DNA of 56,061 nt from Elainellaceae cyanobacterium (GTDB lineage Bacteria; Cyanobacteriota; Cyanobacteriia; CAZCXK01). The stretch's first letter is position 1; each line of letters starts with the position of its first letter. Position numbers and translations under genes: made by a program. Below the pieces are notes generated by a model. That model made no database searches. It saw only the letters and a program-made list of their open reading frames with translations, and was not told the origin of the DNA. Location of the stretch: contig JBNPEG010000036.1 of NCBI GenBank assembly GCA_051117555.1, positions 1-56,061 of the forward strand, in the 5' to 3' direction. This document shows, in pieces, positions 18,613 to 51,673 of the stretch.

Positions 18613-18624
18613 ATATTCTTTGCC

Positions 18625-19206: not shown

Positions 19207-19288
19207 GTCTGTTTGCATTTCCGTCAATCTGCTTCAGGGTGCTACCACTGCTCACCATTTCTTAAATCAGAAGTTTTGGATTAAACCC

Positions 19289-23442: not shown

Positions 23443-23651
23443 TCGTCTATTGAGTTGGGAATTTAGATCTGCACATGATAGTTGCAGAATCTCTCAATCT
23501 TTACTGTTTTACGTGGGTTCAGAGCACTCAGTCCTGATTGAGGAGAGGCTTTTGGAAGAGAGCGATCGCAGGCAATCCGTGCTTGAACACACTGAATTCC
23601 CAACCCTTCCCCTATGTCCTAATTCCTCTCATCCCAATATCCTGAATAGCC

Positions 23652-33392: not shown

Positions 33393-34484
33393 ATGGCGAT
33401 TCGTCGTATAAGCCTGACTGATTTTATTCAGAATTCTAGTTATCGAAACCGATATGTAGCGGCAGCAAAAAAACTTAAGGCAGATGGTCTTTACCAAATT
33501 TTTGTAGATTGGCACGCAGCTATTGGCCTTAATGCTCATAATAATGTTACGTTTTTGGGCTGGCATCGAATTTTTATCCGGCTTTTTGAAATCGAGTTGC
33601 AAAAAGCTGATTTAGCACTGCAAACTGCTGTGAATCCGGATTTTGACTCCAATGATGTTATTTCTCTTCCTTGGTGGGATTATCCAGCCATGAATTCGGA
33701 TAACCCCAATCACGCAACGGGCAGAATGTGGCAGAGCAACTTTATGGGAGGAAGCGGTAATCCTGTCCAGGATGGCCCTTTCAGAACAGGCGAATGGTCA
33801 GTAGAAGTTCGCAATCCTGTTGACCTTTCAGTTACACCATTCAGGTATGATCCTTGGGAAGGACATGGTTGGCTTGTGCGAGTACTCGCTCGGTCAGGAA
33901 CTCGATTACCCTCTTCAGATGAAATTAACCATGTCATCAATCGACTTAACCAGTTTGATGATGGATATTTCAGAGATTTTGGAGATGGCGTTCCAGAGAC
34001 GTCTACTTCAAACTCCTTTCGTGCGGTTCTTGAAGGATTTGCAGAAACAAATGCTGTGAAGAGAAAGCGTGAAAGTGCGATGCACAATGGTACCCACGGA
34101 TGGGTGAGTGGAACTATGGTTGATGTTCAGTTTTCACCGGGTGATCCTGTCTTCTGGCTGCATCATTGCAACATAGATAGAATTTGGGCACTTTGGCAAA
34201 TTCGACACCCTGCTCTGGCTGACCAGTATCCAACAGATTCTCAGATTGACAACGTGAGAACCAATCCGGGACCTTCTGGACAGAGGAACACTCGTGCTAG
34301 GAGGTTAGATGAACCACAACTACCGTGGGACACACCTAATAAGCCGTGGACCAAACGTGATGGCACGCTACTCATGACAACCAATGTATACACAATAGGC
34401 GATGTTCTCAACTGGACCCAAATGGGCGCGGGTTTAGGTAGTTATGAGATTGCAGGAGTTAACGCCCGCGCCATCACATTCTGA
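33393..34484 (+). CDS. Tyrosinase (type-3 copper protein)
   Basis: CuA site WH..AH..FLGWHR, LPWWD, CuB site HNGTH..SPGDPVFWLHHCNIDRIW. Confidence 0.93.
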   Translation: MAIRRISLTDFIQNSSYRNRYVAAAKKLKADGLYQIFVDWHAAIGLNAHNNVTFLGWHRIFIRLFEIELQKADLALQTAVNPDFDSNDVISLPWWDYPAMNSDNPNHATGRMWQSNFMGGSGNPVQDGPFRTGEWSVEVRNPVDLSVTPFRYDPWEGHGWLVRVLARSGTRLPSSDEINHVINRLNQFDDGYFRDFGDGVPETSTSNSFRAVLEGFAETNAVKRKRESAMHNGTHGWVSGTMVDVQFSPGDPVFWLHHCNIDRIWALWQIRHPALADQYPTDSQIDNVRTNPGPSGQRNTRARRLDEPQLPWDTPNKPWTKRDGTLLMTTNVYTIGDVLNWTQMGAGLGSYEIAGVNARAITF

Positions 34485-34494
34485 GGTTTGAAGT

Positions 34495-37400
34495 ATGGCA
34501 TTAGACGCTAGAGCTATTTCTTTACCTGTACTCAATGCGCTACGTAGAGCGCTAGAGCAAATCAGCGTCGTTACATCCCAGAAAGAGGTCTTTCAGGACT
34601 TTTTAACCTGCTTCGGCTGGGATGTGTCAATCACGGAGACACAACTGGAAGCTATTCGCAATTTCATAAATGTAGAAGGGACGCTGAGTGCTTTTGGTGA
34701 ACTGAGTGTAGCCTTGGAGAGTGGGAGCGAAAATGAGTTGCAAATCTCAGGTGAGCTTCTCTCTGGAATCATCAATCTGATTACTAGCATTAAACAGTGG
34801 AGAAGTGGCAATATTGCTTCGCTTCCTTCTCCGTTCGATGGGTCAACAACCTTCTGGGATGATTTTTCGGACGATATGCTCAATCAAATGGTGGTGATGG
34901 CTTTGCGTCAAGAAGCACCTGCATTACACCATGTTTTGGTGATATTTGGTGTGTTTGAGCAGGAGATGGTCAACCCTAGAGGGGCGCAGCGTATCCCTTT
35001 TATTCGACAAAAGGTTTATTGGAATCGGCTTGATGACTTGGTAACCGATCCGCTTAGCTTACTAAAACAATCCTTCAAGTGGGGACAATCAGGGGAAGAT
35101 TTAAACTATACAAAACTAATTTATAGTCTGGGGTTCTTAATTGAATCAGCAGGTTTTCCTGGACGGCTCAGTTCTCCTGCGGCGTCACTTCTCGATATCT
35201 ATTACTCTTCTACTAATCCAATACGGTCAAGAATTCAAGAACTCGATGTTCCCTTTTTGCTAGAGGTAGATCCAGGGTTTCAATCGTTTGCCGAAATTGG
35301 GGTTAGAGTCCTGCCTATCTCACCAGTAGCTAATAACGATGCAGCCCCGAATGGCATTATGATTGCACCACTTGCCCGAGGGAGCTTGCAAGGAAGTTCA
35401 GATAATAATTCTGAATGGGCACTCTCTCTAGTAGGCGATGCTTTGTTAGATGGTGCCTTTCGCTTAGAGATTAGACCTAATGATGCTGTCCTCGTTCTAG
35501 CCCCTGGAGAGACTTCCTTGAACGTTGGTCTGAATTTGCAGGGGCGTTTTAAGAATCCCTTCATTCTGATTGGTACAGCGCGATCGCATCGAATTGAAAT
35601 AGAAGGTCTATTTTTTGCAGTTGAGATCAAGGGAACTCAAAATAGTCCTGAAGTAATTCTCAAAACAGGCACGGGTGAGGGGGCCAATTCACCTAGAATT
35701 CGTTTCATTCTCCAAGCGAGCGAAGGAGATAGCTTTTTGCAAGACCTGCTTGGGAGTGAACCCCAGTCTGTTGACTTGGCAGGGTATCTTTCATTTTCAA
35801 GTCAGCATGGAATAGGAATTAACGGGAGTATCGGTTTTCAGTTGCAGTTTCCCTTGCATTTAGCATTGGGACCTATTGATATTCAATCTCTTCAACTAGG
35901 CACTCGCGCTAACGATTCAGGCGGAGCGGATATTCCTATTGGTATCAATGTTAAGGCAGCATTGGGGCCGCTAACTGCTGTAGTTGAAGATATCGGTGCT
36001 GCAATGGTTTTAACACCATTGAATAATACCGATTCTGGTCTGTTAGGCAACTTAGATGTTGACTGGATTTTTAAACCGCCAAACGGAGTGGGTCTGGCAT
36101 TAGATGCTGGCATCGTAGAGGGCGGTGGCTTCCTTCGGTTTGATCCAGATAAGGAACAATATGACGGAATTCTGGAGCTTAATCTCAAGGGAATCGTCAG
36201 CGTCAAAGCAATCGGGCTCATCACCACACGCTTGCCTGATGGTTCCAAGGGCTTTTCCTTACTGATCATCATCACCGCCGAATTTGGCACTGGGCTGCAA
36301 CTGGGCTTTGGCTTCGTGCTGCTGGGAGTTGGAGGACTGCTGGGGCTGAATCGCACGATGAAATTGCAGCCCTTGACTGAAGGAGTCCGGACGGGAGCGA
36401 CGGAAAGCATACTGTTCCCGCAGAACATCATTGCCAATGCACCCCGGATCATTAGTGATTTACGCCGCTTTTTCCCGCCTGAAGACGGCATTTTTCTCGT
36501 TGGTCCGATGGCAAAGCTGGGGTGGGGCACGCCCGCTCTAATTACCCTATCTTTAGGCATCATCTTCGAAATCCCAGGAAATATTGCCATTCTGGGCGTT
36601 CTCAAGGTCGTGCTACCCGACGAAAGGGCTGCCCTGCTCGTATTGCAGGTGAATTTCATCGGCGCTATCGAGTTTGACAAGCAGCGGGTTTACTTTTTCG
36701 CCACCCTGTTTGAATCAAGAATCCTCTTCAACACGATTGAGGGGGGCATGGGTGTATTGATGGCGTGGGGTGACGACAGCAACTTTGTGGTAAGTGTGGG
36801 GGGCTTTCATCCGCAGTTTACGCCTCCCCCCCTGCCGTTTCCGACTCCTCAGCGCATTGCGTTTACTGTTGTCAATCAGCCCCTAAGCCGCATCCGCGTG
36901 ATGGCCTACTTTGCCGTCACCTCTAACACAGTACAGTTTGGAGCGCGCGCCGAGATCTTTTTTGGCTTTAGCAAATTCAAGCTTGAAGGCCATCTTGCTT
37001 TTGACGCCCTGTTCCAGTTCAGTCCATTTTTCTTCATCATTGAGATTTCTTGCGAAGTCTCTCTCAAAGTCTTTGGAATCGGGCTGTTCAGCATTTCGCT
37101 GAAGTTCTCGCTTGAGGGGCCAACTCCCTGGCGGGCTAAGGGCTACGGCAAGCTCAAGCTGCTTTTCTTCACCATCAAAGCCAACTTTGACTATACCTGG
37201 GGTGAGGAGAAAGATACCTCCCTGCCACCCATTGAAGTTCTGCCGTTACTGCAAGCAGAATTTGAGAAGCTTTCCAATTGGAAGGCACAGCTTCCGGCAT
37301 CGAGCAATTTGCTGGTGTCATTGCGGATGCTGAGTGATAGTAGCGATCGCCTAGTGATGCATCCAGTGGGCACTCTGACCGTAACGCAGCGGGCGGTACC

Positions 37401-37995
37401 ATTGGATTTGCGGCTCGATAAGGTGGGCAATCAAAAGCCCAGCGATGGCAAGCGGTTCTATTTAGACGTCGCCAGTGGGTTGAAGAAGGTGGCGGATCTG
37501 GATGAGCAGTTTGCGATCGCCCAATTCCAAGACTTCAAAGATGCCGAAAAGCTATCTCAAGCTCCGTTTCAGCCCGAAGAGGCGGGGATAGAAGTAGCAG
37601 TATCTGATCAATCCTTCGCTGCGGGCAAAGCGGTGAAGCGCAACATCCGCTATGAGACGCACATCATCGATACGAATTTCCAATTTGCCTTCATTGCCCT
37701 GTTTGGCTTTGTAAATCGTCTGTTCAACCACTTCCTCAACGGTAGCGTGGTGACGAAATCAGTGGTGTCTCAGCACTATAAACGGCAGTTCCAGCCGTTC
37801 GACGACACGATTGTGCTCAAGTCCGAACAGTTTGTGGTGGCATCCACTGTGGATAACCGAGCAATCAGCCAACAGGCAGTGTTCACGAGCGAGGCAAAAG
37901 CCCGTGATTTTATGGACGCTGAGGTAGCTAGGGATGCATCCCGACGGGAGCTACTTCACGTGATTCCATCAGATGAAGTCAATGTTGAGGGGTGA
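34495..37995 (+). CDS. Large beta-rich protein, DUF6603-like (1166 aa)
   Basis: FKPPNGVGL..GGGFL..QYDG, QLGFGF..GVGGLLGLNR, SVGGFHP, YFAVTSNTVQFG and GPTPW motifs recalled for DUF6603; needs HMM confirmation. Confidence 0.8.
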   Translation: MALDARAISLPVLNALRRALEQISVVTSQKEVFQDFLTCFGWDVSITETQLEAIRNFINVEGTLSAFGELSVALESGSENELQISGELLSGIINLITSIKQWRSGNIASLPSPFDGSTTFWDDFSDDMLNQMVVMALRQEAPALHHVLVIFGVFEQEMVNPRGAQRIPFIRQKVYWNRLDDLVTDPLSLLKQSFKWGQSGEDLNYTKLIYSLGFLIESAGFPGRLSSPAASLLDIYYSSTNPIRSRIQELDVPFLLEVDPGFQSFAEIGVRVLPISPVANNDAAPNGIMIAPLARGSLQGSSDNNSEWALSLVGDALLDGAFRLEIRPNDAVLVLAPGETSLNVGLNLQGRFKNPFILIGTARSHRIEIEGLFFAVEIKGTQNSPEVILKTGTGEGANSPRIRFILQASEGDSFLQDLLGSEPQSVDLAGYLSFSSQHGIGINGSIGFQLQFPLHLALGPIDIQSLQLGTRANDSGGADIPIGINVKAALGPLTAVVEDIGAAMVLTPLNNTDSGLLGNLDVDWIFKPPNGVGLALDAGIVEGGGFLRFDPDKEQYDGILELNLKGIVSVKAIGLITTRLPDGSKGFSLLIIITAEFGTGLQLGFGFVLLGVGGLLGLNRTMKLQPLTEGVRTGATESILFPQNIIANAPRIISDLRRFFPPEDGIFLVGPMAKLGWGTPALITLSLGIIFEIPGNIAILGVLKVVLPDERAALLVLQVNFIGAIEFDKQRVYFFATLFESRILFNTIEGGMGVLMAWGDDSNFVVSVGGFHPQFTPPPLPFPTPQRIAFTVVNQPLSRIRVMAYFAVTSNTVQFGARAEIFFGFSKFKLEGHLAFDALFQFSPFFFIIEISCEVSLKVFGIGLFSISLKFSLEGPTPWRAKGYGKLKLLFFTIKANFDYTWGEEKDTSLPPIEVLPLLQAEFEKLSNWKAQLPASSNLLVSLRMLSDSSDRLVMHPVGTLTVTQRAVPLDLRLDKVGNQKPSDGKRFYLDVASGLKKVADLDEQFAIAQFQDFKDAEKLSQAPFQPEEAGIEVAVSDQSFAAGKAVKRNIRYETHIIDTNFQFAFIALFGFVNRLFNHFLNGSVVTKSVVSQHYKRQFQPFDDTIVLKSEQFVVASTVDNRAISQQAVFTSEAKARDFMDAEVARDASRRELLHVIPSDEVNVEG

Positions 37996-38004
37996 GGCAG
38001 AGTT

Positions 38005-41000
38005 ATGAGTGAACTGGGAACCTATACATTTCTGCCGTGGCTGCGCCAGGGCATTGCTAACAGCATTAACGCTGCCGATCAGGATGTCACAGTCAAGAAT
38101 CGGGCTTCGGTGGCGATCGCCCTCAAGCTCAGAGGTGATCCGGTAGAAGGCTCGAATTCACTAGAGCGGGAGATTTCTCAAGATATTGAGCTATATGGCC
38201 CCGGAGATATTATTGGCATTGACTCAAACGCCATCCTCAAAGTCGAACCCCGCAACTGGATCACCAACTTTGAGACCAATTTCCTTCCTTATATCGAGTT
38301 CTACGATGAGGATTTTCCCTGGTGCTATACCCCAGCCAAACCGAATGCTTCAAATATCAACCGTCTGCGGCCTTGGCTGATGCTGGTGGTGTTGAGAGAA
38401 GACGAATTCAAGGAAGGAGGAGCAGGTGGAGGCGATCGCCCCTTGCCCTATGTTGTTGTTGAGGAGTCGTCTGTCTTTCCTCCCTCGGCAGATCTCTGGA
38501 CCTGGGCGCACGTTCACTCGAACAGGAACTTAATTGCCGGAAGCACGGATATGGTCGTAGAGGCCGATGAAAATGGCTCGGTACTGGCCCAGTTGACGCA
38601 AACCCTGAAGCAAAATCCAGACCTCGCCTATTCCCGCATTCTTTCTCCCCGCAGGCTAACAGAAAATACGGCCTATCATGCTTTTCTGATGCCTGTGTTT
38701 GAAACTGGACGGTTGGCTGGATTAGGGCTTGACCCAACGAAGGCTCCCTATGCCACTCACTGCGCCTGGGATGTCTATCCTGAAGGAGCCACAGACCCTC
38801 GGCAGGAGCCGACCTATTACCCCGTCTACTATCGCTGGTATTTTCGCACCAGTACAGTAGGCGACTTTGAGTATCTAGTGCGGCTGCTGAAACCGAGGCT
38901 TATGGATAGTCGGGTAGGGCGGCGAGACATGGATGTACAGTATCCCGATGCCAACTTGCCCGGCATATCGGATGAATACAGCCTGAATTTGATATCCGCA
39001 GACAGTGCGGATGATTTGCCTTCAAAAGGTAGAAGCGTAGTGATTGTAGCGAAAATTGATGACTTCTATCATGCTCGGATTTTTGATGAGATTGGAAATC
39101 AGGTCGTTGACAGGGGAGAAGGAGAATTTACTCCCGATGATGCACTGGTTCAGCGATTGGAGGAGGCGCTTAGTAATCCATCACTGGATAGACAAACCAA
39201 ACAGTCGTTGATAGAGGATATTACTGCAAGTTTAGGTCATACTTTAACGGTGCCTGGGCTAGGAGGTGTACTCAAACTTGGCGGAGCCTTACAAATTCCC
39301 TTTGGCACCCTCAACGAAGACGATCAGCAAGAAGTACAGAAGTATGAGAACTGGGCACAGCCCTATCCCCATCCATTTCAAACGGAGTTGGCGGCATTTA
39401 TCAATCTGGCAGAAGGGTATAGTCGCCTGGATGCAGAAACCGCTAACAGCGACCCAAATTTGCCCGTTCCGATTAGCACAGACCCTGACCCTGATCCGCT
39501 GATCACTCCACCCCTGTATGGTCGCTGGCACGCCAAAATGCAGCGGCTCTTGGCGGACGAGGCGGGCAATGACCTGCCGCAGAATGACAACTGGGTCCAT
39601 GACCTGAATTTAGACCCCCGATTTCGCGTCGCGGCTGGCTTTGGTACAGAGGTAATTCAGAAAAACCAGGAAGCCTATATGGATGCGGCGTGGGGGCAGA
39701 TTGGCGATATTCTTAAAGCGAATCAGCAGATCAAATGGGCGCAGGTTGCTAAAGAAGTGTCCTGGATTTGGTACGACAATCACCTGCGTCCTCTCAAGGA
39801 TCGGAATCCCGATCGCTTTTTCACCTTGACGGCTCCGCTAGATCGACGGGTGCTGGTAGACGGTACGACCCGCTTCCATGCGATCAGAACCAGTATTGTG
39901 CCTCGTGCGGCGACGGTGGCCCCGATGCGGCGGATGATGCGATCGCGATCGCGCCTGATCCAAAAACTCAACTTTCCTGCTAACCGTCCCCCTGAAACCC
40001 TAGTGACGCGGATTAACAATCGGGAAATTCTCCCCGCACCGCCGAAAATCACCCCTCCTAGCCTGCCGACCCTAGACCAACTGGCGGAAGAAATGCTGCC
40101 CAATGTGCCAGAGGTGATCCTCGACTTAGTGCGCCGTATTCCATCATGGCTTAGGTTCATTATCCTGGCGCTGATCACCCTAATTTTCACCCTGATCGGG
40201 GGGCTGGTAGGACTCCTAATTGTTGGGATTCTGGCAGTGATCGCTTTTTTCTATCTGAACCGCATTGGTAGACAGACGGACGCTGCCGATAGCCTCAAGG
40301 AGGAAAATCAAACTCCCGATCGGGTAGATAGATTGCCCCAAAGTCCTGACTTTGTCCTCACTCGCCCCGATGAAGACGCACAGCCCAGTCAAGGGAATTC
40401 AGATAGTGACGAGGCGACTCGCTTCAAGGTCGCCCTCAAGGATACCTATCGCCTGATACAGGCTAGCCATCAGGCTGCCCAGGAACCGCCTCGACAGCCC
40501 CTGGATCTCCCCACCCTGACCGTAGGCACGTTTCAGGCCATCAATCCTGATGTGACCATTCCTAAGGCAACCCTAACCACAATCTTCATTCCTCCCCGCA
40601 TCAAAGATGCTCTGTTCGAAATCTTTGAGGAGGCGATGGCCTATCCAGAATTTGACATTCCCATGTACAAGCCTCTGGCGGAGATCTCGGATGAATTATT
40701 TCTGCCCAATCTGCAATACATCGAGCAAAACAGTATTTCTCTGCTAGAAACCAACCAGCGCTTCATCGAAGCCTACATGGTGGGGTTGAACCATGAGTTT
40801 GCCCGTGAATTACTTTGGCGTGAATATCCGACCGACCAGCGAGGCAGCTATTTCCGCCAGTTCTGGGATGTCAAAAGCTTCCTTGATCGCGAGAATCTGG
40901 ACAAGGAAGCACTCCGGGAAAAACTAAGGGACATTCCGCCCCTGCATCGCTGGTCAAGGTTTTCTGATCTGGGGGATCATGACCACCGAGAAGCCTCAGG

Positions 41001-41634
41001 GGAAACGGAAGAAGAACTTGTGCTCGTCATTCGAGGGGAACTGCTGAAGAAATATCCCACGGCCGAGATTTACGCTCATCGAGCAGAGTGGGAAAGGACG
41101 GACGACGGTGAAATTGATAAGACTAAGCCCCGTTCCCTGCGCTCTCTAGATGAGACAGAAGAGGACAATCCTCCTCCTTCTAAAATCCGTATGCCCCTCT
41201 ACGAAGCCAAGGTGGAGCCGGATATCTATTTCTTTGGTTTTGATTTGACCCCGAAAGAAGCGCGAGGCGAAACAGAGGATAAGCCGGACGATCCAGGTTG
41301 GTTTTTCGTGATTGAGGAACGTGCTGGTGAACCTCAGTTTGGCTTTGATATTGACCAGGATGGTGCAGGAGGAGGTATCAAGCAGCATTGGAATGATCTG
41401 TCCTGGGACGATGTACTGCCGGGAGGTGCTGCCGGAGATTTTGTCCAGCCCAGAAATTCTCCTGGAATCGCCCTCACAGAGCCACCGGAGGATGATCAGG
41501 AAGGCCGTCAGCAGTATGCCGAAGATGTGCAAGTAACTTGGACAGGGAGTGTCAGCGCGGCAGAGATGGCTTATATCATGTACCAGGTGCCCGTCCGGGT
41601 GGCTGTTCATGCCTCAGAAATGTTGCCGGAGTAG
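38005..41634 (+). CDS. Uncharacterised 1209-aa protein with an internal hydrophobic hairpin
   Basis: Long ORF in the tight operon; motifs GDFEYLVRLLKP and ELLWREYPTDQRGSYFRQFWD. Confidence 0.88.
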   Translation: MSELGTYTFLPWLRQGIANSINAADQDVTVKNRASVAIALKLRGDPVEGSNSLEREISQDIELYGPGDIIGIDSNAILKVEPRNWITNFETNFLPYIEFYDEDFPWCYTPAKPNASNINRLRPWLMLVVLREDEFKEGGAGGGDRPLPYVVVEESSVFPPSADLWTWAHVHSNRNLIAGSTDMVVEADENGSVLAQLTQTLKQNPDLAYSRILSPRRLTENTAYHAFLMPVFETGRLAGLGLDPTKAPYATHCAWDVYPEGATDPRQEPTYYPVYYRWYFRTSTVGDFEYLVRLLKPRLMDSRVGRRDMDVQYPDANLPGISDEYSLNLISADSADDLPSKGRSVVIVAKIDDFYHARIFDEIGNQVVDRGEGEFTPDDALVQRLEEALSNPSLDRQTKQSLIEDITASLGHTLTVPGLGGVLKLGGALQIPFGTLNEDDQQEVQKYENWAQPYPHPFQTELAAFINLAEGYSRLDAETANSDPNLPVPISTDPDPDPLITPPLYGRWHAKMQRLLADEAGNDLPQNDNWVHDLNLDPRFRVAAGFGTEVIQKNQEAYMDAAWGQIGDILKANQQIKWAQVAKEVSWIWYDNHLRPLKDRNPDRFFTLTAPLDRRVLVDGTTRFHAIRTSIVPRAATVAPMRRMMRSRSRLIQKLNFPANRPPETLVTRINNREILPAPPKITPPSLPTLDQLAEEMLPNVPEVILDLVRRIPSWLRFIILALITLIFTLIGGLVGLLIVGILAVIAFFYLNRIGRQTDAADSLKEENQTPDRVDRLPQSPDFVLTRPDEDAQPSQGNSDSDEATRFKVALKDTYRLIQASHQAAQEPPRQPLDLPTLTVGTFQAINPDVTIPKATLTTIFIPPRIKDALFEIFEEAMAYPEFDIPMYKPLAEISDELFLPNLQYIEQNSISLLETNQRFIEAYMVGLNHEFARELLWREYPTDQRGSYFRQFWDVKSFLDRENLDKEALREKLRDIPPLHRWSRFSDLGDHDHREASGETEEELVLVIRGELLKKYPTAEIYAHRAEWERTDDGEIDKTKPRSLRSLDETEEDNPPPSKIRMPLYEAKVEPDIYFFGFDLTPKEARGETEDKPDDPGWFFVIEERAGEPQFGFDIDQDGAGGGIKQHWNDLSWDDVLPGGAAGDFVQPRNSPGIALTEPPEDDQEGRQQYAEDVQVTWTGSVSAAEMAYIMYQVPVRVAVHASEMLPE

Positions 41635-41646
41635 GGAGTCAGCGTC

Positions 41647-44600
41647 ATGACCGAATTCGATGATACGGGCAGACAACTTAATCAGATTCAACAGCAGCGC
41701 GATCGCACTCGATTAAACCTGTTTGTTGCCCGCGAACAACTGACAAAAACCCAGGCCGCTCAACAACGGCTGAATCGCTATTTCAATCCCCAAAATCCAG
41801 ATCATCAGTCCCGCCAGCGCCAGTTGCAGTCACAACGAGCCAGGACGGAAGCCACAATTCGACAACTGGAACGTAATCTGGATGAAGTAGCGACGACCGC
41901 GACGCGGCTGACTGCCGAATTCTTGCCGTTTACCGATCCGCGTGACAACCTCCGCTTCAAACATACCGACTACCCGTTTCTACTATTTCCTCTGCGGCTC
42001 GAAACCCGCTTCAAGTCCGTGAATGTACTGGGAACAGCACCCAGTGAGCAGCTCTGGGTACGGGTGTATCCTGACGAGTGCCTAGTGGATACCTTTGAAT
42101 CCGTACTTTCAGAGAGCGAAGTTGCCAGCGTGCAAAAATTTTGGGTGGACTGGGCTAAGGCAGGGGGCATTGAGGCCGAACAGCGAGGAGCCTGGCGATC
42201 GCTCGTTTCTGGCTTCGGTGCTGGACGGGCGGCTTGGCTGATTCAGCAGTACCAACCGGATCTGAGTAGCTCCTTTCCCCAAAAGACAGAGGCAGAAACA
42301 GGGGTAGATCGGGTGCTGGCGATCGCCACCTCACAGCCCCTTTCCTCTGAAGAAAAGCCTGTTGTCGAGACGTTTTGGATTGCCTGGTGGCGAGCGGAGG
42401 GCAACGCTGTCGCGGAACAGGCCGCGATCGCCACGCTAGAAGAGGCGATCGGAGCAGACCGGGCAGCGGTGATTCTCACCGACTACGTCCCGGAAAATCT
42501 AGCCGATGAACCTCCCGCGTCTCTGACTCGGTCGGAGGCACGAGTGGCGATCGCCTGGCTCGAATTCTCTGACCCCGAACAAACAGAAACGCAACAAAAT
42601 TCCTGGTCCCAGGCTCCCCGCGTGACTGTGTTGCCAGAACGGCTGGTGCTGCTGGGCTATCGCAACGGGGAACAGGTGTTAGAACAACTGGGTAACCCGA
42701 TTCCTACCCCATTGATTGCAGGCCCCGATCCCCTGGCGGATGACGCTGACCAGTTGCGTCTGGAAAATGGCGACGTGGTGGTTAGTGACGCCATGCGGTG
42801 GATGGTAGATTTTGATCGCGCTGTAGAGGTAGGCATGGGATTTCGGGTCAATCTCAGCCCGACGGATCGGCGGCTGGGGTTTGATCAACTGCTGGTGCTG
42901 GGAGTGCGTCTGAGTGCCGATGCTGCTGCTGGGCAGGAGATGCTCGAAACCCTCTTCCAGCATCATGAAACAGGAAATTCTGGTTTTAGCCTGGTGCCTC
43001 AGGGCACGCCCACGAATAACACCGAAGGGGCAGGGTCTGGGTTTTCTGAACGCGAAGACGCGGATGACACCTATGATCTAGTGTTCAAAGCAGACCCGCT
43101 CACTCATGACCCGGATTGGCGATCGCGCCAGGATGGGCAGTGGTTGGCAGATCTCCTCGGCATCCGGCTCAGCACCTTTGACCGCACGCCCTTTGCGCGC
43201 GGGCGCGACCAGTGTGAAGCCCGTGCGATGAATACGGTACTATGGCCCGGCACCTGGGGCTATTTGATGGAATCGATGATGACCCCGGTGTTTGATGCCT
43301 CAACCATTGAGAAAACTCGCTGGTTTTTCACCCACTTTGTTTCTGCCAGGGGCATTTTGCCAGCAATTCGCATCGGCGATCAGCCCTACGGCATTCTGCC
43401 CACCACCGTCTTCAGTCGGGTGTCTTGGCTGCGGGGGAAACGCTGGCCTCGTCCGGGAGTGCCCCATCCGTCGGGCTACCGCACCTATTTGATTGAGCTA
43501 TATCAACTCTTAGAAACCATGCGAGCCGATTGGCAGCAGCAGCTCTCGAAGGTGTCCTATGTCGGCAAGAACGAGGATAGTGATCCGCATCAGATTTTGC
43601 TGGATGTGGTGGGCCTGCATCCCTCATCGGCGGAATACTACCAGCGTTATGCTGAAAGTCTAGAGCAACTGACCAATCGCCTGAAGTTGCAGGGATTTTG
43701 GGGTCAACTACTGGCAGCGCTGATTGCTGTGGGCTATCCTCAAAGCGGCATGGACTTGCTGAGCCGCCTGGGATACGAGGACGATGCTATTCCTGAAATC
43801 CTAGAGAAATTTTTCTTGAACCAACCCGATAAGCTGCTGGGGGATTTGATCGACGACCAACCCCTTTCAGAAGTTAATCCCGTTCGAGCCTACACCGATG
43901 ATGGCCGCAACTATATTCGCTGGCTGATTGATACTGCCCAGACTTCCTTTGATGCGCTGCGAAACGAGGAAGGTTTCACCGACAATCAGAAGCCCAGAGC
44001 GTTGCTTTACCTGATGCTCCGCTATGCCTTAGAACAAGGCTATTGGGATGCAGGGTTACGCCTATTTGAGACCTTTGAGCTGTTGTCTCCAGAGCAACTG
44101 GCAACTGCGCGACTCGATCCCAGCTTTGTCCATGTAGCCGATCGGGGCGTTGAATCCTCATTAGAGCGAACCTCCAACCAACTGGCGACGTCTGGCAAAC
44201 CCGTCCGGTTCAACCAGCGAAGCGAGAGTCGTTACGAATATCTTTATCAAACGGCTCCTGCAATTACGAACAATCCTGAGATGATGGTCGCCGACTACAT
44301 TCCTCAGATAATCAGTCAGTTGCCCGCCACCCGCTACTTGTATCAGCAACTCGAAGCCCTGAAGCACTTAGAACACACCCCCACTGCAGGGTTAGAACGT
44401 TTGTTCGCTGAACATGTGGATCTCTGCACCTATCGGCTAGATGCCTGGCGTTGGGGGCTATTGAACTATCAACTGCTGGGACTGCGGTATGGCGATCGCC
44501 CCACGTCCCCTGATACGCCTGGCACACCCGGTGATGATGATGACGACGACGATATTGATGTTGAACTCCTCGCAGTTGATGTAGAGCGCTCTCCGGCTAA

Positions 44601-47600
44601 AAAAGGCATCTATTTGGGGGCGTTCGGCATTCTAGAGAAAGTGAAATCAGAAAATAAACAACTCACCCCTGTTGAATTAGATGAAGAACTGGACGCTATC
44701 TTTAACCCACCAGAATCAGAGAACCTACCGCCGTTGATGCAAGACAGTACGAACGGTGGATTTATCCATGCCCCGTCACTCAACCATGCGATCGCCGCTG
44801 CCATTCTCCGCAATGGCTACATCGTCAATGCCACGCCCGACGATCCCAACCTGCTCAAGGTCAACCTGTCCTCCGAGCGAGTGCGGATGGCATTAGGCAT
44901 CATCGAAGGCATCCGCAATGGGCAAACTCTGGGAGCACTACTGGGCTATCAGCTAGAACGAGGCTTACACGATCGCCACACCGAAGCCGAAGTTGATCAA
45001 TTCATTTTTGAACTGCGTAAAGCTTTTCCCTTAGTTGCCGATCGGTTTCGGGACACTCAGTCGGATGACGCGGATGCCATTCAGACGATTGAGGCACGCA
45101 ACGTGGTGAATGGCTATGCGCTGATTAACCAAATCAAACAGTCTGGCATTAAGACCTATCCCTTTGGCGCAAGTAGTCTTCCTACAACGGGCATCACCGA
45201 TGAGCAGAAAGCAGTCATCGATACCGAAGTTGAGCGGATTCTTGATATCCAAGATGCGGTTGCTGATCTGGTAATGGCAGAGGGAGTGTATCAGGCAGTG
45301 CAGGGCAATTATGGGCGAGTAGCATCAAACCTGGACGCCTACGCTAAAGGTACTTTTCCTCCAGAACCGGAAGTCGTGCAAACACCGCGCAGTGGCATCA
45401 ATTTAACTCATCGCATGGGGTTGCATTTTGAATCCGGACTCGATCCGGCAGTATCGCCCAATGCCCTTGCAGTGACTCCCCGCACTCATGCTGAACCTGC
45501 CGTCAATGCGTGGTTAACTCGCTTGCTGCCTGATCCGGCCACCGTCATCTGCAAGGCAACGTATCTGGATGCAGCAGATGGCATTGTGAAAACGGAGGAG
45601 GTTAGCCAGCAGCAACTTGGACTACAGCCCCTAGACTTACTCTACCTCGTCAATCCTGAAGCCAACCAGGCCATGACCGAGCTGGATGACCAGGTGGTGT
45701 ATTACATGCTGACAACCCATACTCCCCGGTGGGATATCGACATCGAGATTCAGTATGTGCTCAAGCAACCGGGTCGAGTGTCTTTCTTTGAGGTCGGAGC
45801 GATGCTGAGCAGCCTCCGCAGTTTGATTCTCAAATCTCGCCCCTTGAATGCCACGGATGTCGCAATGCCGACGGAAGCTCGTCAGGAAACCGCCACGCAG
45901 GTCAGGGTTGATGAGAATCGCCTGCTGCCCTTGGCAGAGCAATTGGGAGACCTGGTGTCCCACCCTAATCCGGTGGAAGACGATCTAGATAGTTTGAAGG
46001 AGGATTTGAAGCGGTGGCAATGGTTTTCGGACACTCGCCAGAGCACCCTTTTGAATGACTATGAGCTGAGCTTGATAACCGTAGCCAGTGCGGATGATTT
46101 GCCAGAGGAGGGTGAGAGATTAGTCGTCGTCGCGAGAATCGCAGGTTCCTATCAGGTCCGGATTTTCGGTGGTGATGGCACCCAGGTGATTGATGACGGA
46201 GCAGGGGCGTTTTCCCCGGATACGGCACTGGTTTTACAACTAGAGGACGCGTTTGATAACCAACCCATTGATGACCCAACGAAGAACGAGCTTTTACAAG
46301 CGATTCGATCAAGCCTGATACAGTCTTTTCTAAGTGATATTGATCGTTGGATTGACCGGACAATGGCGCTGTTTTACCGGGCGATCGCCTTTGGTATTCC
46401 CCAAGCCAGTATCGGGTTTGCCTACGACTGGAAAAAGCAGCAGTTTGGGGCACTCCAAGACAAGGTCAATGAGCTGGTAGAACGATGGCAAGACCGCCTC
46501 ACCTCCTTCAACACGTTCCTCACCACTGACTATCCAGCCGCAACCACCGATGAGGAGCGGATCGCTCTGCTGCGCCAGGCAGAGGGGCTGGTCTCGACAG
46601 AGCTAACAGTTCCTTTGCCTGCTACTCCTGAAGCGTATCGGACGGCGGTTCAGGCAAAAGCAGTTGCGTTTGAGACAAAGCTAAATCAGTTTCGGGCAAT
46701 CCTGGATTCCTCGAATACACGCCTTTCCCAGTTGTTAGCCGATATTACGGCTCAGTTACCTCTAGATGCTTTTGAGTTTCAGGGGCTGGAGGTAACAGAG
46801 GAGGAGGAAGAAATCCTGCGGTTTTCCGGGGATCTGCATCGCCAGGTCACGCTGCTGCAAACGGAACTTCTGCGGCGACAAACCACTGCCAGTGACCAGA
46901 TCACAGAGGCTCTGAGTCTGGGCGAAGCGACAGCACGGGTAGACGGGCTGACTCAAGCCGCTAAAAGTCTACTGGGCGAGGATTTCAAACTGGTTCCAGA
47001 ATTTACGCTGTCCGCCGAACAAGCCAGTGAGTGGGATAAGGCATGGGGCGATCGCACGCTCATCCTGTCCTATCTCACTGATGCAGAACCGTCGGGATTG
47101 GGACTCGACTTTCCAGTAGATGAATGGCTGTATGGCGTAGCACGGGTGCGCGAGGATGCGGCCCACTGGGAGCGGGTGATGATGTTGAGCCATGCCTTTG
47201 GTACGGGAGAACCGGAGCTAGAACCCATCCAATTGCCCTACCGAGAGAATGACCGCTGGCTGGCTCTGCCCTATCCGACAGAATATGAGTTTGATGGCGA
47301 TCGCCTCCTCTACACCGCTCACTACACCATCCCCTTCAACCCTGGTGCAAACCAGTGCGGGCTACTGCTCGACGAGTGGACGGAAGTCATTCCTACTCCA
47401 GAGGAAACTACCGGCATCACGTTCAACTACGATCGCCCCAATGCCGAGCCGCCACAAACGCTGCTGCTGGTCATGAGTCCGCATCTCGATGGAGCGTGGC
47501 AATGGAATGACTTGGTGGATGCCATCCGCGAAACCCTGGAGGAAGCTCGTCTGCGAGCTGTTGAACCCACGCAAATAGACGATACTCCTTATGCCCGCTT

Positions 47601-47709
47601 CCTACCTGCAACGACTTCGGCAGTCACCTTCCATCCCATCACGATCATGCTCAATCTGGCTCTGAACAACACCGTATATCGTCTCATCAACACCGAAGAT
47701 AATGGCTGA
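41647..47709 (+). CDS. Uncharacterised 2020-aa protein
   Basis: Long ORF with N-terminal coiled coil; motifs FPLRLETRF, QGTPTNN, TYRLDAW, GFIHAPS and GLLLDEWTEVIP. Confidence 0.9.
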   Translation: MTEFDDTGRQLNQIQQQRDRTRLNLFVAREQLTKTQAAQQRLNRYFNPQNPDHQSRQRQLQSQRARTEATIRQLERNLDEVATTATRLTAEFLPFTDPRDNLRFKHTDYPFLLFPLRLETRFKSVNVLGTAPSEQLWVRVYPDECLVDTFESVLSESEVASVQKFWVDWAKAGGIEAEQRGAWRSLVSGFGAGRAAWLIQQYQPDLSSSFPQKTEAETGVDRVLAIATSQPLSSEEKPVVETFWIAWWRAEGNAVAEQAAIATLEEAIGADRAAVILTDYVPENLADEPPASLTRSEARVAIAWLEFSDPEQTETQQNSWSQAPRVTVLPERLVLLGYRNGEQVLEQLGNPIPTPLIAGPDPLADDADQLRLENGDVVVSDAMRWMVDFDRAVEVGMGFRVNLSPTDRRLGFDQLLVLGVRLSADAAAGQEMLETLFQHHETGNSGFSLVPQGTPTNNTEGAGSGFSEREDADDTYDLVFKADPLTHDPDWRSRQDGQWLADLLGIRLSTFDRTPFARGRDQCEARAMNTVLWPGTWGYLMESMMTPVFDASTIEKTRWFFTHFVSARGILPAIRIGDQPYGILPTTVFSRVSWLRGKRWPRPGVPHPSGYRTYLIELYQLLETMRADWQQQLSKVSYVGKNEDSDPHQILLDVVGLHPSSAEYYQRYAESLEQLTNRLKLQGFWGQLLAALIAVGYPQSGMDLLSRLGYEDDAIPEILEKFFLNQPDKLLGDLIDDQPLSEVNPVRAYTDDGRNYIRWLIDTAQTSFDALRNEEGFTDNQKPRALLYLMLRYALEQGYWDAGLRLFETFELLSPEQLATARLDPSFVHVADRGVESSLERTSNQLATSGKPVRFNQRSESRYEYLYQTAPAITNNPEMMVADYIPQIISQLPATRYLYQQLEALKHLEHTPTAGLERLFAEHVDLCTYRLDAWRWGLLNYQLLGLRYGDRPTSPDTPGTPGDDDDDDDIDVELLAVDVERSPAKKGIYLGAFGILEKVKSENKQLTPVELDEELDAIFNPPESENLPPLMQDSTNGGFIHAPSLNHAIAAAILRNGYIVNATPDDPNLLKVNLSSERVRMALGIIEGIRNGQTLGALLGYQLERGLHDRHTEAEVDQFIFELRKAFPLVADRFRDTQSDDADAIQTIEARNVVNGYALINQIKQSGIKTYPFGASSLPTTGITDEQKAVIDTEVERILDIQDAVADLVMAEGVYQAVQGNYGRVASNLDAYAKGTFPPEPEVVQTPRSGINLTHRMGLHFESGLDPAVSPNALAVTPRTHAEPAVNAWLTRLLPDPATVICKATYLDAADGIVKTEEVSQQQLGLQPLDLLYLVNPEANQAMTELDDQVVYYMLTTHTPRWDIDIEIQYVLKQPGRVSFFEVGAMLSSLRSLILKSRPLNATDVAMPTEARQETATQVRVDENRLLPLAEQLGDLVSHPNPVEDDLDSLKEDLKRWQWFSDTRQSTLLNDYELSLITVASADDLPEEGERLVVVARIAGSYQVRIFGGDGTQVIDDGAGAFSPDTALVLQLEDAFDNQPIDDPTKNELLQAIRSSLIQSFLSDIDRWIDRTMALFYRAIAFGIPQASIGFAYDWKKQQFGALQDKVNELVERWQDRLTSFNTFLTTDYPAATTDEERIALLRQAEGLVSTELTVPLPATPEAYRTAVQAKAVAFETKLNQFRAILDSSNTRLSQLLADITAQLPLDAFEFQGLEVTEEEEEILRFSGDLHRQVTLLQTELLRRQTTASDQITEALSLGEATARVDGLTQAAKSLLGEDFKLVPEFTLSAEQASEWDKAWGDRTLILSYLTDAEPSGLGLDFPVDEWLYGVARVREDAAHWERVMMLSHAFGTGEPELEPIQLPYRENDRWLALPYPTEYEFDGDRLLYTAHYTIPFNPGANQCGLLLDEWTEVIPTPEETTGITFNYDRPNAEPPQTLLLVMSPHLDGAWQWNDLVDAIRETLEEARLRAVEPTQIDDTPYARFLPATTSAVTFHPITIMLNLALNNTVYRLINTEDNG

Positions 47710-47714
47710 AGACA

Positions 47715-49673
47715 ATGGCTGAACTTCCTTCAATTCAAAACATGCGAGCGATCCTCGCTCGACGAGCCTTCCCCACGATCACCCTATGGAATCGGTTGGA
47801 GGGGCGTCCCCGACGGGATGACTTCGACCGCGCCATCAAGGCTGAGGTGCGGGATGCCCTGTGGATGCTCTGCAAACAGTGGCAGATGGGTGAGTTCTTG
47901 GGAGATGATGCCGGGTCGCCTATCTTCGCCAAAGTCCACATGGGCTCCACTCGCCTGACTAAATATCAGCCCAACGGTCACGATCCGCGCCCCTTCTCTG
48001 ACGAAGAGCCGATGGAAGCCCAGGTAGAAAACCGCCCGGTGCCGTTCGCCCTCGGTGATCAGTATATTTCCTTGAATCTTCGAGTGCTGATGGGGCGACA
48101 CTGGCTCAAACTTGTCAATCAAACCATTGGCAACTTTGATGCCGACTACATCCAGCGCTATCCCATCGATGAACCCGATCCCAATGCAGCAGCAGATGCC
48201 CAGATTTGCGCCCATCCCGAAGTGTGGCAGCAGGTTACTGCCGTAGCTGGACGCATGATGGACGGCTACGCCTTCTACCGGTATCTCACTGCCAATCCAA
48301 CCAATCGCGCCCATATCGATACGTCTATCCCAGTGACTCGTCATGCCGACGTTGATGCCCTAGCAGAACGCTTCATTGCCTGGTTCCAGCGACAGTTCTA
48401 TCAGCCCACCGAAACCCAAGGTGATGCCTGGAAACCGTCCCAACTGGAGTACCAGTTTGCCTGCTCGGCTCCAACAGTGCAAGGGGAAACCGTTTACACC
48501 GCAGACGAGTACTATCAGGGTCGACTCGACTGGTACAACTTAGACATCGACCCGACCCGCGAGGAACTGACAATTCCCAATCCACTCCCCGATTCAGATC
48601 CAGATAGCCCAAACCCAGAATCCCCGGAATCAGAAACTCCTAATCCCATAGACAGTGCTCCCACGCCTCTATCTTTCATTCCGGTGCAGGTTAGCTACGA
48701 CGGCATGCCCAACACCCGCTGGTGGGCATTTGAAGACCGCAAGACCAACTTTGGCGACATTAATCCCAAAACCCGAGATCTATCTAAACTACTGTTTATG
48801 GAGTTTGGTTTGGTCTATGCCAACGACTGGTTTTTGATTTCCTATCCCCTGCCAGCAGGAAGCATTGCGCGAGTGAAGGGTATGGCCGTAACCAACGTGT
48901 TTGGGGAGCGTATCTGGGTGGAGCCCGCAGGCAGTGGCGACGATGACGACTGGCAGCGCTGGAGCATGTTCACCATCAGCACACGCGGGCAAAACCAGGA
49001 CGCAGCGGATACTAGCCTGGTGTTGCTACCCACCGTACCCAAGATACAAGAGGGGCGATCGCTCGAAGAAATTTCCCTAATCCGCGATGAAATGGCGAAC
49101 ATGGTGTGGGGTATCGAAACGCGCATCCCCTTACCCTCGGGTGATAGCAAATCGGGACGAGAAGCGGGATATGAACTCTACAACTATTACAAACGATTGC
49201 TGGAGCAAGACATTGAAGCAGGACAAGTCGCGCCGCCTCCAGAAACCTACAACGCCCCGATTCGTTACCAGGTAATGAACCGCGTCCCGGAGAATTGGAT
49301 TCCCTTCATCCCGGTGCATGTCGAGAATGACAGCCGTCAGATTCAACTGCAACGGGCATCCATGCCCCGCATCTTACCCGGGAGTCCCGATCGTCCTAAG
49401 GTTAAGCCTCGCACCGTGCTGCTTCGGGAAGGACTCGATAATGAAACAGATCTAGAGCAGCAGCGATACTTCGTGGATGAAGTAGAGGTATCCCGTGCGG
49501 GGGCGTGTGTCTTCCAACATTATCAGCGAACGCGTTGGTATAACGGGCAGGTTTTTACGTGGCTGGGCGTACGCAAGCAGACAGGACGTGGAGAAGGTAA
49601 TAGTGGTTTGGTCTTCGACCGGCTTGTGAGTGTGCCAACCCGGCAGAGAACTGACCTTGAACCTTCATCCTAG
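47715..49673 (+). CDS. Uncharacterised 652-aa protein
   Basis: Last gene of the operon; motifs DALWML.KQWQMGEF.GDDAGSP, GMPNTRWWAFED, RDEMANMVWG and GRGEGNSGL.FD. Confidence 0.88.
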   Translation: MAELPSIQNMRAILARRAFPTITLWNRLEGRPRRDDFDRAIKAEVRDALWMLCKQWQMGEFLGDDAGSPIFAKVHMGSTRLTKYQPNGHDPRPFSDEEPMEAQVENRPVPFALGDQYISLNLRVLMGRHWLKLVNQTIGNFDADYIQRYPIDEPDPNAAADAQICAHPEVWQQVTAVAGRMMDGYAFYRYLTANPTNRAHIDTSIPVTRHADVDALAERFIAWFQRQFYQPTETQGDAWKPSQLEYQFACSAPTVQGETVYTADEYYQGRLDWYNLDIDPTREELTIPNPLPDSDPDSPNPESPESETPNPIDSAPTPLSFIPVQVSYDGMPNTRWWAFEDRKTNFGDINPKTRDLSKLLFMEFGLVYANDWFLISYPLPAGSIARVKGMAVTNVFGERIWVEPAGSGDDDDWQRWSMFTISTRGQNQDAADTSLVLLPTVPKIQEGRSLEEISLIRDEMANMVWGIETRIPLPSGDSKSGREAGYELYNYYKRLLEQDIEAGQVAPPPETYNAPIRYQVMNRVPENWIPFIPVHVENDSRQIQLQRASMPRILPGSPDRPKVKPRTVLLREGLDNETDLEQQRYFVDEVEVSRAGACVFQHYQRTRWYNGQVFTWLGVRKQTGRGEGNSGLVFDRLVSVPTRQRTDLEPSS

Positions 49674-49806: not shown

Positions 49807-50610
49807 ATGGAACAAGTAAAGATTGCTATCTTGTCCAATGCAGGAGGATCGGGCAAGACGACAACCACGGTTCACGTCGCCTATGAGCTTGCACGACGTG
49901 ACATTTCGGTCGTGTTGTTTGACCTAGATCCCAATCAAAGTCTTCAGCTATTCACTGGAAATGACCCAGGCGATGCTCAAACAATTGCAGAGATTCTTCC
50001 TAATCTCAAGAACTTTAAGGGGGATTATCCGCTAATTCCTTGTTGGACTGATCACACCGATAAAGTTGACCTGCTTCCAGGGGGTGGTCAAGATCTAATC
50101 CGACTATCGAGTGAGCTCGTTGTCAATAAACGTGGAGCATACCTACTCGCAGACTGCCTGGAGGATTATCCACTTCCCCATCAGGTTTATCTTTACGATT
50201 GTCCTGCTACGATTGGAGCACTTACCAGTGCAGCTCTGGCCGCAGCGACTCACATTCTGATTCCGATTCAGTCAGAACCCAAAGCTGCCAACGGAGCCGC
50301 TTTGATGCTCCAATGGTTTTACGAAGAAATTGATAATCTTCGGCTGAGACCAGAACCTGAGATTCTGGGTGTGATCATTAATAGACATGAGCAAACCTGG
50401 AGCTACTCAAGAGAAATTGAAGAAGGAGTACCGGGAAAATTAGCGGAGCAGGGAATTCGTACTTTCTCAACCATACGCGAGTATGCAGATTTTATGAATG
50501 CATCGTCCTATGGCATCCCGCTTCAAATATATCGCCCAGGACATCAGAAAGGTGCCTCGACAAAGGGGTTCTCAGAGATCGCCGAAGCAATTTCTGCACT
50601 CCTCCAATAA
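49807..50610 (+). CDS. parA: ParA family partition ATPase
   Basis: Deviant Walker A AGGSGKTT, DLDPN, YDCP. Confidence 0.93.
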   Translation: MEQVKIAILSNAGGSGKTTTTVHVAYELARRDISVVLFDLDPNQSLQLFTGNDPGDAQTIAEILPNLKNFKGDYPLIPCWTDHTDKVDLLPGGGQDLIRLSSELVVNKRGAYLLADCLEDYPLPHQVYLYDCPATIGALTSAALAAATHILIPIQSEPKAANGAALMLQWFYEEIDNLRLRPEPEILGVIINRHEQTWSYSREIEEGVPGKLAEQGIRTFSTIREYADFMNASSYGIPLQIYRPGHQKGASTKGFSEIAEAISALLQ

Positions 50611-50621
50611 AAACAACAGTC

Positions 50622-50639
50622 GAGTATTTCAAAATACTC
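50622..50639. promoter_or_regulatory. parS-like palindrome GAGTATTTCAAAATACTC
   Basis: 8-bp perfect arms, located between parA and parB. Confidence 0.65.
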
Positions 50640-50647
50640 TATCTCAG

Positions 50648-51673
50648 ATGGCTAAAAGACAAAGAGTTGATGCGGTCAGCTTTTTTGATCGCGCTGGACA
50701 AACTAGGCAAGAAATTATTAAGCAAAAAGACGAACTTATTGCTGACCTTCAGCAACATATCGCTAACCTCCAACAGCGTGGAGTAGAGCAGGAAGCAGCG
50801 TTGGATACCATCATTCCCCTTCGGTTAAGGAACGGAATGAGCCAACCTCGATATTACTTTTCTCAGGAGTCATTAGAGCGCCTCGCGGCATCTATTAAAC
50901 GGCACGGACTGGCGGAGCCGCTAATTGTGCGCGAAGCTGATGACGAAAAGCTGGAAATCGTTGCCGGTGAACGACGATACCGAGCTGCCAAGATCGCAGG
51001 ACTTGAAACAGTCCCCTACCGTCTTAAGCAACTCAGCGATGACGATGCATACGAACTTGCAATCATCGATAATCTCTTCCGAGAAGACTTAAACTTGTTT
51101 GAGCAAACCGATTCAATGCTGAATTTAGTTGCGCTTAAGCTTGGACTTGATAGAGACGGTGCGATCTCGACGCTTTGGAAAGTTAAGAATTTTGAGGAGA
51201 GAAAAAGTAATCTATCCGAAGAAGATCACTCGCGAGTCGATATAGTTCGGGGACTGTTTGAGCCATTTGGTATTACCGTGCGCTCTTTTGTCGTTAATCG
51301 GCTGCCGATTTTAGACTTGCCTGAGGCGTTGCTCGGTGCCGTCCGAGATGGTGTCATTGAGCCTACCAAAGCGAATTTTATTGCAAAAATTGAGAATGAG
51401 CAGGAACAGGATGAACTACTACAGATAGTCGTTAACGAAAACTGGTCAACTGCGCAAATTAGGAATGAGGTTAAAACTCGACAAAATATTGCTGATGCTA
51501 AATCTGATGTTGAGCCTTATCAAGAAATCAGTGATCTGATATCAGCAACGAGTCGGCAGTTAACGAGAGTTGCGAAAAAGCTTCAAAAAGGGAAAAAAAT
51601 TGAAGATGAGCAAACGTTACAGCAAATTTCTAAGCTTTCTAGAGAACTCCAAGAATTGATGAACTCTTTGTAG
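50648..51673 (+). CDS. parB: ParB/Spo0J family partition protein
   Basis: QPRYYF, IVAGERRYRAA and DNLFREDLN motifs. Confidence 0.94.
   Translation: MAKRQRVDAVSFFDRAGQTRQEIIKQKDELIADLQQHIANLQQRGVEQEAALDTIIPLRLRNGMSQPRYYFSQESLERLAASIKRHGLAEPLIVREADDEKLEIVAGERRYRAAKIAGLETVPYRLKQLSDDDAYELAIIDNLFREDLNLFEQTDSMLNLVALKLGLDRDGAISTLWKVKNFEERKSNLSEEDHSRVDIVRGLFEPFGITVRSFVVNRLPILDLPEALLGAVRDGVIEPTKANFIAKIENEQEQDELLQIVVNENWSTAQIRNEVKTRQNIADAKSDVEPYQEISDLISATSRQLTRVAKKLQKGKKIEDEQTLQQISKLSRELQELMNSL

Follow-up and report, generated by a model that had tools for sequence, protein, structure and literature searches.

A predicted compact domain of ~93 residues inserted in frame into unrelated cyanobacterial proteins

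Inteins, like the related bacterial intein-like (BIL) and Hint elements, are in-frame inserts that are translated with their host, occur sporadically among orthologues and interrupt well-known domains. Accessory and receptor-binding domains are inserted in TcA toxin shells and in the sheath proteins of contractile injection systems (CIS), as discrete globular units that are looped out of giant secreted machines and vary between orthologues. The STAND-NTPase conflict systems of multicellular bacteria reportedly carry effector-associated adaptor domains (attributed to Kaur, Burroughs, Iyer and Aravind, 2020), which are said to be all-alpha and to lie at protein termini. At the level of DNA, a review describes Rickettsia palindromic elements as multi-copy palindromic DNA repeats of ~150 bp which, like intragenic MITEs (transposable elements of the miniature inverted-repeat type), form short in-frame cassettes that are translated within unrelated genes (PMC10969869). 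Here we describe a module of ~93 residues that resembles each of these systems in part. Two copies of it lie in a contig of 56,061 nucleotides (JBNPEG010000036.1, assembly GCA_051117555.1; this whole stretch is called the window) from an Elainellaceae cyanobacterium, within two large proteins, P0003 and P0004, whose open reading frames are adjacent on the same strand (Table 1). We propose, as the probable account, that the module is a self-folding cassette that enters genes at a fixed length, is translated with its host, is kept as a looped-out binding or adaptor-like add-on and has spread by horizontal DNA and recombination.

An earlier note, made from the letters of this DNA alone, had claimed that the same ~88-residue module sits in two large proteins that otherwise look unrelated, and both halves of that claim held. 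BLASTP of the translations, which read as quoted, aligned the 88-residue stretches at 38971-39234 and 46054-46317 (P0003 residues 323-410 and P0004 residues 1470-1557) with 42 identities and 58 positives among 88 positions, 0 gaps and an E value of 3e-27. When the whole proteins were compared, the module was the sole significant common segment (E 7e-20), the next alignment having an E value of 3.6. Alignment to orthologues, described below, corrects the size of the unit from 88 to 93 residues (279 bp); over the 93-94 residue unit the two copies share 45% of their amino acids and 60% of their nucleotides, and a six-frame hidden Markov model (HMM) search of the whole 6.06-Mb assembly returned these two copies only. 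The 18-nucleotide stretch noticed in both copies, CAGTGCGGATGATTTGCC, proved real, with exactly two occurrences in the window and two or more matches in 0 of 100 shuffles. It encodes a conserved motif of the module, and since identical runs of 15-23 nucleotides also join non-orthologous copies from different genomes, it is no sign of recent copying. Copy 1 is 61% identical in amino acids to a copy from Kovacikia, above its 45% to copy 2, and the modules of the operon family are scattered among those of other hosts in a quick FastTree tree, built from 111 short module sequences and read without regard to branch support. Judged from these sequence relationships, each host's copy therefore seems to have been gained separately from a diverse outside pool and not from the neighbouring gene.

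The earlier note had suggested aligning each host to its orthologues, and this gave a clean in-frame insertion of exactly 93 residues. Orthologues of P0003 at 50-93% identity were found in many phyla; the search returned 2926 homologues at E<=1e-5, of which 120 were listed and scanned with the module HMM. Two of these 120 carry the module, namely P0155 (93% identical, from an Elainellaceae metagenome-assembled genome, MAG) and P0156 (87% identical). Among 15 aligned orthologues, 12 lack exactly residues 324-416 while their flanks are continuous, running on from ...LPGI(S/T)D into P(E/G)LGGVLKLGG; one of the 12 is the 83% identical orthologue of Halomicronema hongdechloris. The module was likewise absent from all 80 metagenomic loci (925 kb) that encode a P0003 orthologue, and these orthologues, at 44-61% identity, are too distant for empty sites to be compared at nucleotide level. 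A further orthologue, P0252, has no module and contains other insertions of ~25 and ~60 residues near the equivalent of P0003 residues 450-495 (alignment columns 483-600), neither of which matches the module profile.

The P0004 family shows the same behaviour at more than one site. In the 83 other homologues listed, two carry the module at the site used in the window and one at another site. The former, P0275 and P0276, have the same insert as P0004, and 15 of 18 aligned homologues lack the 93 columns there; the exact placement can shift by 6 codons, as the flanks align about as well in either position. In P0278 the module forms a 93-column insert at a different site, before GDRLLYTAHY (P0004 residue 1884), and the orthologue from Leptolyngbya sp. 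PCC 7375 has a 93-residue module after the equivalent of residue 1111 and none at the window's site. When P0003 and P0004 orthologues from contigs of identical length are paired, all four combinations appear: the module is present in both in this genome and its congener G002, in P0003 alone on contig 16807, in P0004 alone on contig 20214, and in neither in Halomicronema hongdechloris C2206, at loci XM38_028420 and XM38_028410. At least one additional gain, precise loss or recombination event is therefore needed.

These alignments also bear on whether the module could be an ancestral domain that most orthologues have lost, so that deletion produced the pattern. The host tree is unresolved within the cyanobacterial clade and polarity cannot be read from it, which leaves this account some room. 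It has to explain, however, why the module is missing from nearly all listed P0003 homologues and from every metagenomic locus, why different lineages of one family carry it at different sites, why the same module lies inside unrelated domains, and why its GC content at third codon positions (GC3) is below that of the host gene. The earlier note had named presence at the same position in all orthologues as an observation that would speak against an insertion; the module is in fact absent from most orthologues at the same site, and we consider the ancestral-loss account very improbable and close to refuted.

We then searched a profile built from four copies of the module against 1.84 billion representative proteins, which yielded 498 clusters at E<=0.001 (112 at E<=1e-10 and 13 at E<=1e-30) with unrelated hosts. 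A word-based search with the 88-residue module returned two near-identical orthologues only, and a contig scan with a single peptide pattern from an eight-sequence alignment returned 6 loci. The 150 listed hosts range from 59 to 7998 residues and hold one to four copies at any position, in some cases in tandem. A Pfam scan covered 148 of them, two being too long, and assigned named families in 28 of 54, 16 of 55 and 5 of 39 hosts (three batches, with thresholds of 1e-5, 1e-10 and 1e-12). Toxin parts are represented by TcA_TcB_BD, ABC_toxin_N, TcdB_toxin_midN, VRP1 and RHS, and contractile injection systems by phage-type sheath and Baseplate_J proteins; hosts of conflict-system type carry WD40, nSTAND1, NACHT, NB-ARC-TPR with trypsin, or patatin domains. 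The remainder include MscS, AAA_5, KaiC, ShlB, FGE-sulfatase, JAB, HEAT, hemopexin, LamG, PA14, cyclophilin, protein kinase, cytidine deaminase and DUF6603 proteins. Five proteins, P0029, P0052, P0056, P0116 and P0142, have just the beta-strand half (profile positions 1 to ~55), repeated two to four times; the cassette may derive from an older repeat domain.

The hosts overlap those of two of the systems introduced above. As with the accessory domains of toxin shells and sheaths, TcA-like, TcB-like, sheath and baseplate proteins are among them; the module differs in having no recognised relative in fold or sequence and in occurring also in presumably cytosolic kinase, AAA and STAND proteins. 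With the STAND adaptor domains it shares small size, promiscuity and an occurrence in the nSTAND, NACHT, NB-ARC, WD40, patatin and trypsin proteins of filamentous cyanobacteria, but it is beta-plus-alpha, is inserted inside domains and matched no Pfam model of that kind. None of the tests made here relates it to either group. Genome G013, from another family of the same class, has a contractile-injection locus with Pvc16_N, an AAA ATPase and gp19-type tubes, and there the sheath gene harbours the module. Within its module, this sheath gene (L006, 9096-11144, minus strand) is interrupted by an in-frame TAA that follows ...VAKVDNSY, with the frame open on both sides, which could reflect a pseudogene, an assembly error or read-through. 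The genome of the window itself gave no sheath or Pvc16 match.

Two hosts were compared residue by residue with solved structures. In a cyclophilin host, residues 6-59 and 65-163 of 3s6m_A were matched on either side of the module, leaving an insert of ~99 residues between residues 59 and 65 that corresponds to a 98-residue variant with a longer loop. In a kinase-NACHT host, residues 9-81 and 88-212 of 9ymt_A were matched around a net insert of 93 residues, in the loop between residues 81 and 88 that precedes the ...LAMAYVEG strand. The insert is likewise 93 residues at four sites in the operon family. A preference for conserved host sites, as shown by inteins, was considered and dropped, four sites falling at conservation percentiles 67, 85, 3 and 63.

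That the module is in frame, sporadic among orthologues and able to sit in conserved domains is what would be expected of an intein, or of some other element that excises itself at the level of protein or RNA. The earlier note had remarked on the lack of intein ends, and the starts and ends of the inserts that were examined bear this out. The first residue is E in P0003, E in P0278, R or H in PCC 7375 and Q or D in P0004, never Cys, Ser or Thr. The inserts close with ...TLTV before a host P, ...TQFL before G and ...DLDI before E (E...V, E...L and R...I from end to end), with no C-terminal His-Asn and no Cys, Ser or Thr nucleophile at the +1 position of the host. No Hint or intein profile family matched any of 28 module members at E<=10, no Rfam family matched at E<=1 over 38700-39500, and a Hint structure was not among the fold matches listed. 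To our knowledge 93 residues is shorter than any mini-intein. The module further differs from inteins in showing no sign of excision and in lacking site specificity, given its several positions within a single protein family. Self-excision is the least probable of the explanations considered here, and we give it hardly any weight.

AlphaFold2 predicts the module to be a compact domain, as the earlier note had proposed to check. With a 28-sequence alignment the model reached a predicted local distance difference test (pLDDT) score of 91.4 and a predicted template modelling score of 0.83 (pLDDT 83.6 in a four-sequence run), and consists of four strands (residues 4-10, 23-29, 32-38 and 44-48) followed by two helices (57-67 and 74-87). 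Foldseek searches of the Protein Data Bank (PDB) with both models gave nothing at E<=0.001 (best E 0.2), a wide search with VIA-align gave a best Z of 5.2 (YTH domain 5o8m_A, root-mean-square deviation 3.7, 84 aligned residues), below the noise level of 7-8, and the ESM Atlas gave no usable match for the module. Two profile matches to PDB sequences, a designed protein and SiAga1 (E 0.0064 and 0.0072), were treated as noise. The earlier note had also described the module as unnamed: in the curated families searched (a 2025 copy of Pfam-A, and NCBIfam 20.0), the two window copies matched nothing at E<=10, and the best single-member E values among the 28 members were 0.013 in Pfam and 0.016 in NCBIfam, none above a curated cut-off. 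PF13756 (Stimulus_sens_1) scores 27-29 bits, against a cut-off of 29.8, over the module region of P0043 and P0049, which hold a divergent subtype (FDLRL...LHFRIFD), and matches 3 of the 28 members at E>=0.078; a remote relationship may exist.

The conservation of the module gives some indication of what it might do. Invariant or near-invariant positions are Y3, L5, P17, G20, A27, R36, I37, F38, G42 and L59, and the unit ends follow the approximate pattern x-Y-D-L-x-L ... S-S-L-G-(H/Y)-T-x-x-x. With the exception of R36 and Y3, all conserved positions are hydrophobic, Gly or Pro. As no acidic or His residue is conserved, an enzymatic role is disfavoured, and the absence of conserved catalytic residues would point to a binding or adaptor-like role.

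Selection and composition were computed on 11 module copies for which DNA was available. The ratio of nonsynonymous to synonymous substitution rates (dN/dS) was 0.13-0.51 in every computable pair, with 0.22 and 0.18 for the orthologous pairs; third codon positions are the least conserved and synonymous sites (dS) are saturated between non-orthologous copies. The module copies are under purifying selection. Their composition is foreign to their hosts: GC content is below that of the downstream flank in every one of the 11 copies, and in 10 of them it is lower than in either flank; GC3 is 0.28-0.50 compared with 0.38-0.67. In the window, copy 1 is indeed more AT-rich than its flanks, as had been noticed (GC 0.43-0.45 against 0.53-0.55; for the 93-codon unit GC 0.43 and GC3 0.36 against 0.54 and 0.56), and copy 2 shows a smaller contrast (GC 0.50 against 0.54-0.55). 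Protein-level selection, together with the lack of repeats, of a palindrome and of unusual DNA folding, indicates that the conserved entity is a protein domain and not a DNA repeat. This separates the module from Rickettsia palindromic elements and MITEs, as it has no palindrome or terminal repeat, occurs in one or two copies per genome and combines saturated synonymous sites and protein-level selection with a confidently predicted compact fold.

The main rival to a retained adaptor-like domain is a purely selfish, non-autonomous in-frame element, in which a 279-bp cassette is copied into genes by an enzyme encoded elsewhere. Its fold would be kept since a misfolding insert would destroy the host, much as inteins must stay splicing-competent, and the conserved hydrophobic, Gly and Pro positions fit such foldability pressure alone. 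Fixed ends and length at about six checked sites, insertion inside the catalytic domains of unrelated enzymes, presence or absence that varies among close orthologues, and the low GC3 of the module all agree with this explanation. On the other side, one or two copies per genome and saturated dS between all copies mean that there have been no recent bursts, the ends carry no inverted repeats, direct repeats or structure, and searches of viral contigs, phage records and plasmids did not turn the module up. An ordinary domain family is suggested by the tandem arrays and half-modules, and the enrichment of hosts in giant toxin or injection-type proteins hints at a function. We therefore regard a purely selfish element as unlikely, albeit the most serious of the competing explanations.

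All named sources of the module are cyanobacteria: Elainellaceae, Kovacikia, Leptolyngbya PCC 7375, Leptolyngbyaceae, a 'Synechococcus sp.' MAG, a Trichocoleus MAG and unclassified Cyanobacteria MAGs, names being available for a minority of the module-bearing metagenome proteins. Pattern scans found no relatives in viral contigs, and tblastn found no match in plasmids and phage records. Within the operon family, the module has been hit at at least seven sites, including P0003 residue 324 and three sites of the P0004 family. A DUF6603 protein encoded elsewhere (P0087) has two divergent modules at 974-1069 and 1126-1208, P0009 is a P0004-like fragment with two modules, and P0098 is a P0003-like fragment with partial modules. 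Because this family is hit repeatedly and Tc-toxin and injection-system proteins are hosts as well, the pattern suggests that giant surface-exposed assemblies either tolerate the cassette best or benefit from it.

The repeated use of one three-protein operon family, and the recurrence of the module in other multi-subunit machines (Tc toxins and CIS), would also be expected if the module were a complex-specific docking tag, as the earlier note had offered, with the two copies binding each other or a common partner and so holding a DUF6603/P0003/P0004 assembly together. This is hard to reconcile with the genomic distribution, as four of the five other carrier genomes searched have one copy and the fifth has two in one giant protein. 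Close relatives carry the module in just one of the two genes, so copies are not always co-inherited; other hosts are unrelated, presumably cytosolic, enzymes; and the two window copies, 45-48% identical, are not each other's nearest relatives. We consider a docking tag of this kind improbable.

The central inference of the earlier note, an unnamed mobile in-frame domain, is supported. The domain is unnamed, in frame and a clean insert; for its mobility the support comes from the distribution, since the hosts are numerous and unrelated, a single protein family is hit at several sites, and each of the four combinations of presence and absence occurs. In the account that we favour, a cassette with fixed ends would arrive by horizontal DNA, followed by recombination, and land in frame in loops of unrelated cyanobacterial proteins. 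The domain would be translated with its host and fold by itself, stay in the mature protein as a surface add-on, act by binding or as an adaptor, and be kept where it is tolerated or useful.

Several observations weigh against this account. No terminal inverted repeats, flanking direct repeats or target-site duplication were found at the module ends, the DNA folding of the module is ordinary (z -0.48) with no palindrome, and the insert junctions are known at codon level. The flanks annotated, those in the window and in the extracellular contractile-injection locus L006, showed no mobilising gene next to the module. The module is rare: 3 of 41 relatives have it, and an even sampling of 401 genomes across the phylum, in which 12 candidates per genome were scored and weak copies may have escaped, gave 2 carriers, each belonging to this genus. 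One or two copies were counted in each of the five other carrier genomes, and both rarity and low copy number are a poor fit to a classical transposing element. Tandem arrays and beta-only half-modules look like the behaviour of an ordinary domain family, and the poor resolution of the host tree inside the cyanobacterial clade leaves gain and precise loss inseparable. Retention in the mature protein, a binding role and the route of spread are what we infer. A further step would be to see in the module a mobile element of a new class, in effect a transposable protein domain: a cassette that does not splice, is constrained as a protein and is moved in frame by a trans-acting system between the genes and genomes of filamentous cyanobacteria. 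We regard this proposal as less likely than not.

Table 1. Positions of the module copies, their host genes and the third large operon gene in the window
Feature	Position	Strand	Remarks
DUF6603 protein	34495..37995	+	1166 aa; Pfam PF20248, E 1.2e-129; no module; third large operon protein
Host gene 1, P0003	38005..41634	+	1209 aa; no named family; central hydrophobic stretch at ~residues 700-750
Cassette copy 1	38974..39252	+	93 in-frame codons; residues 324-416 of P0003
Common 18-mer in copy 1	39003..39020	+	codons for S-A-D-D-L-P
Host gene 2, P0004	41647..47709	+	2020 aa; no named family
Cassette copy 2	46039..46335	+	93 in-frame codons in P0004; 46039-46317 or 46057-46335
Common 18-mer in copy 2	46086..46103	+	codons for S-A-D-D-L-P

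The operon that contains both hosts occupies positions 33393-49673 of the window, in the order tyrosinase, DUF6603 protein, P0003, P0004 and a 652-residue protein, and is present in 2 of 41 relatives. The DUF6603/P0003/P0004 trio is itself widespread, and one scan (414 relatives) found it at ~45-60% identity in Actinomycetota, Bacteroidota, Nitrosomonas, Acidobacteria-type MAGs and soil metagenomes. PADLOC gave no match for the large proteins of the operon, and the literature searched contained no description of the module or of DUF6603. Directly after the operon (49807-51673) lie ParA-like (AAA_31/CbiA) and ParB-like genes, whose listed open reading frames overlap by ~110 nucleotides; the contig may be a plasmid or an integrated element. 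Upstream, positions 16905-26981 hold a chemotaxis-type operon encoding a PATAN-like response regulator (DUF4388 and REC), CheW, a phosphonate-binding-like protein, a methyl-accepting chemotaxis protein with GAF and HAMP domains, and a hybrid CheA, as is usual for clusters that serve phototaxis or motility in cyanobacteria.

The prevailing view is that bacterial proteins acquire most of their domains by fusion at the ends. A domain of constant size in the middle of a kinase, a cyclophilin, an ATPase, a toxin shell and a sheath protein, with close orthologues that differ in its presence, is a natural system for studying how insertions enter folded proteins. Protein engineering would gain a useful insertion scaffold in a 93-residue domain that tolerates, and is accepted by, loops of many folds. 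Should a dedicated mechanism be moving the module, the literature searched contains no account of such a kind of mobile element. For the widespread and uncharacterised DUF6603/P0003/P0004 operon, the recurrence of the module in its proteins and in parts of Tc toxins and contractile injection systems provides a first hint to the type of machine that it may encode.

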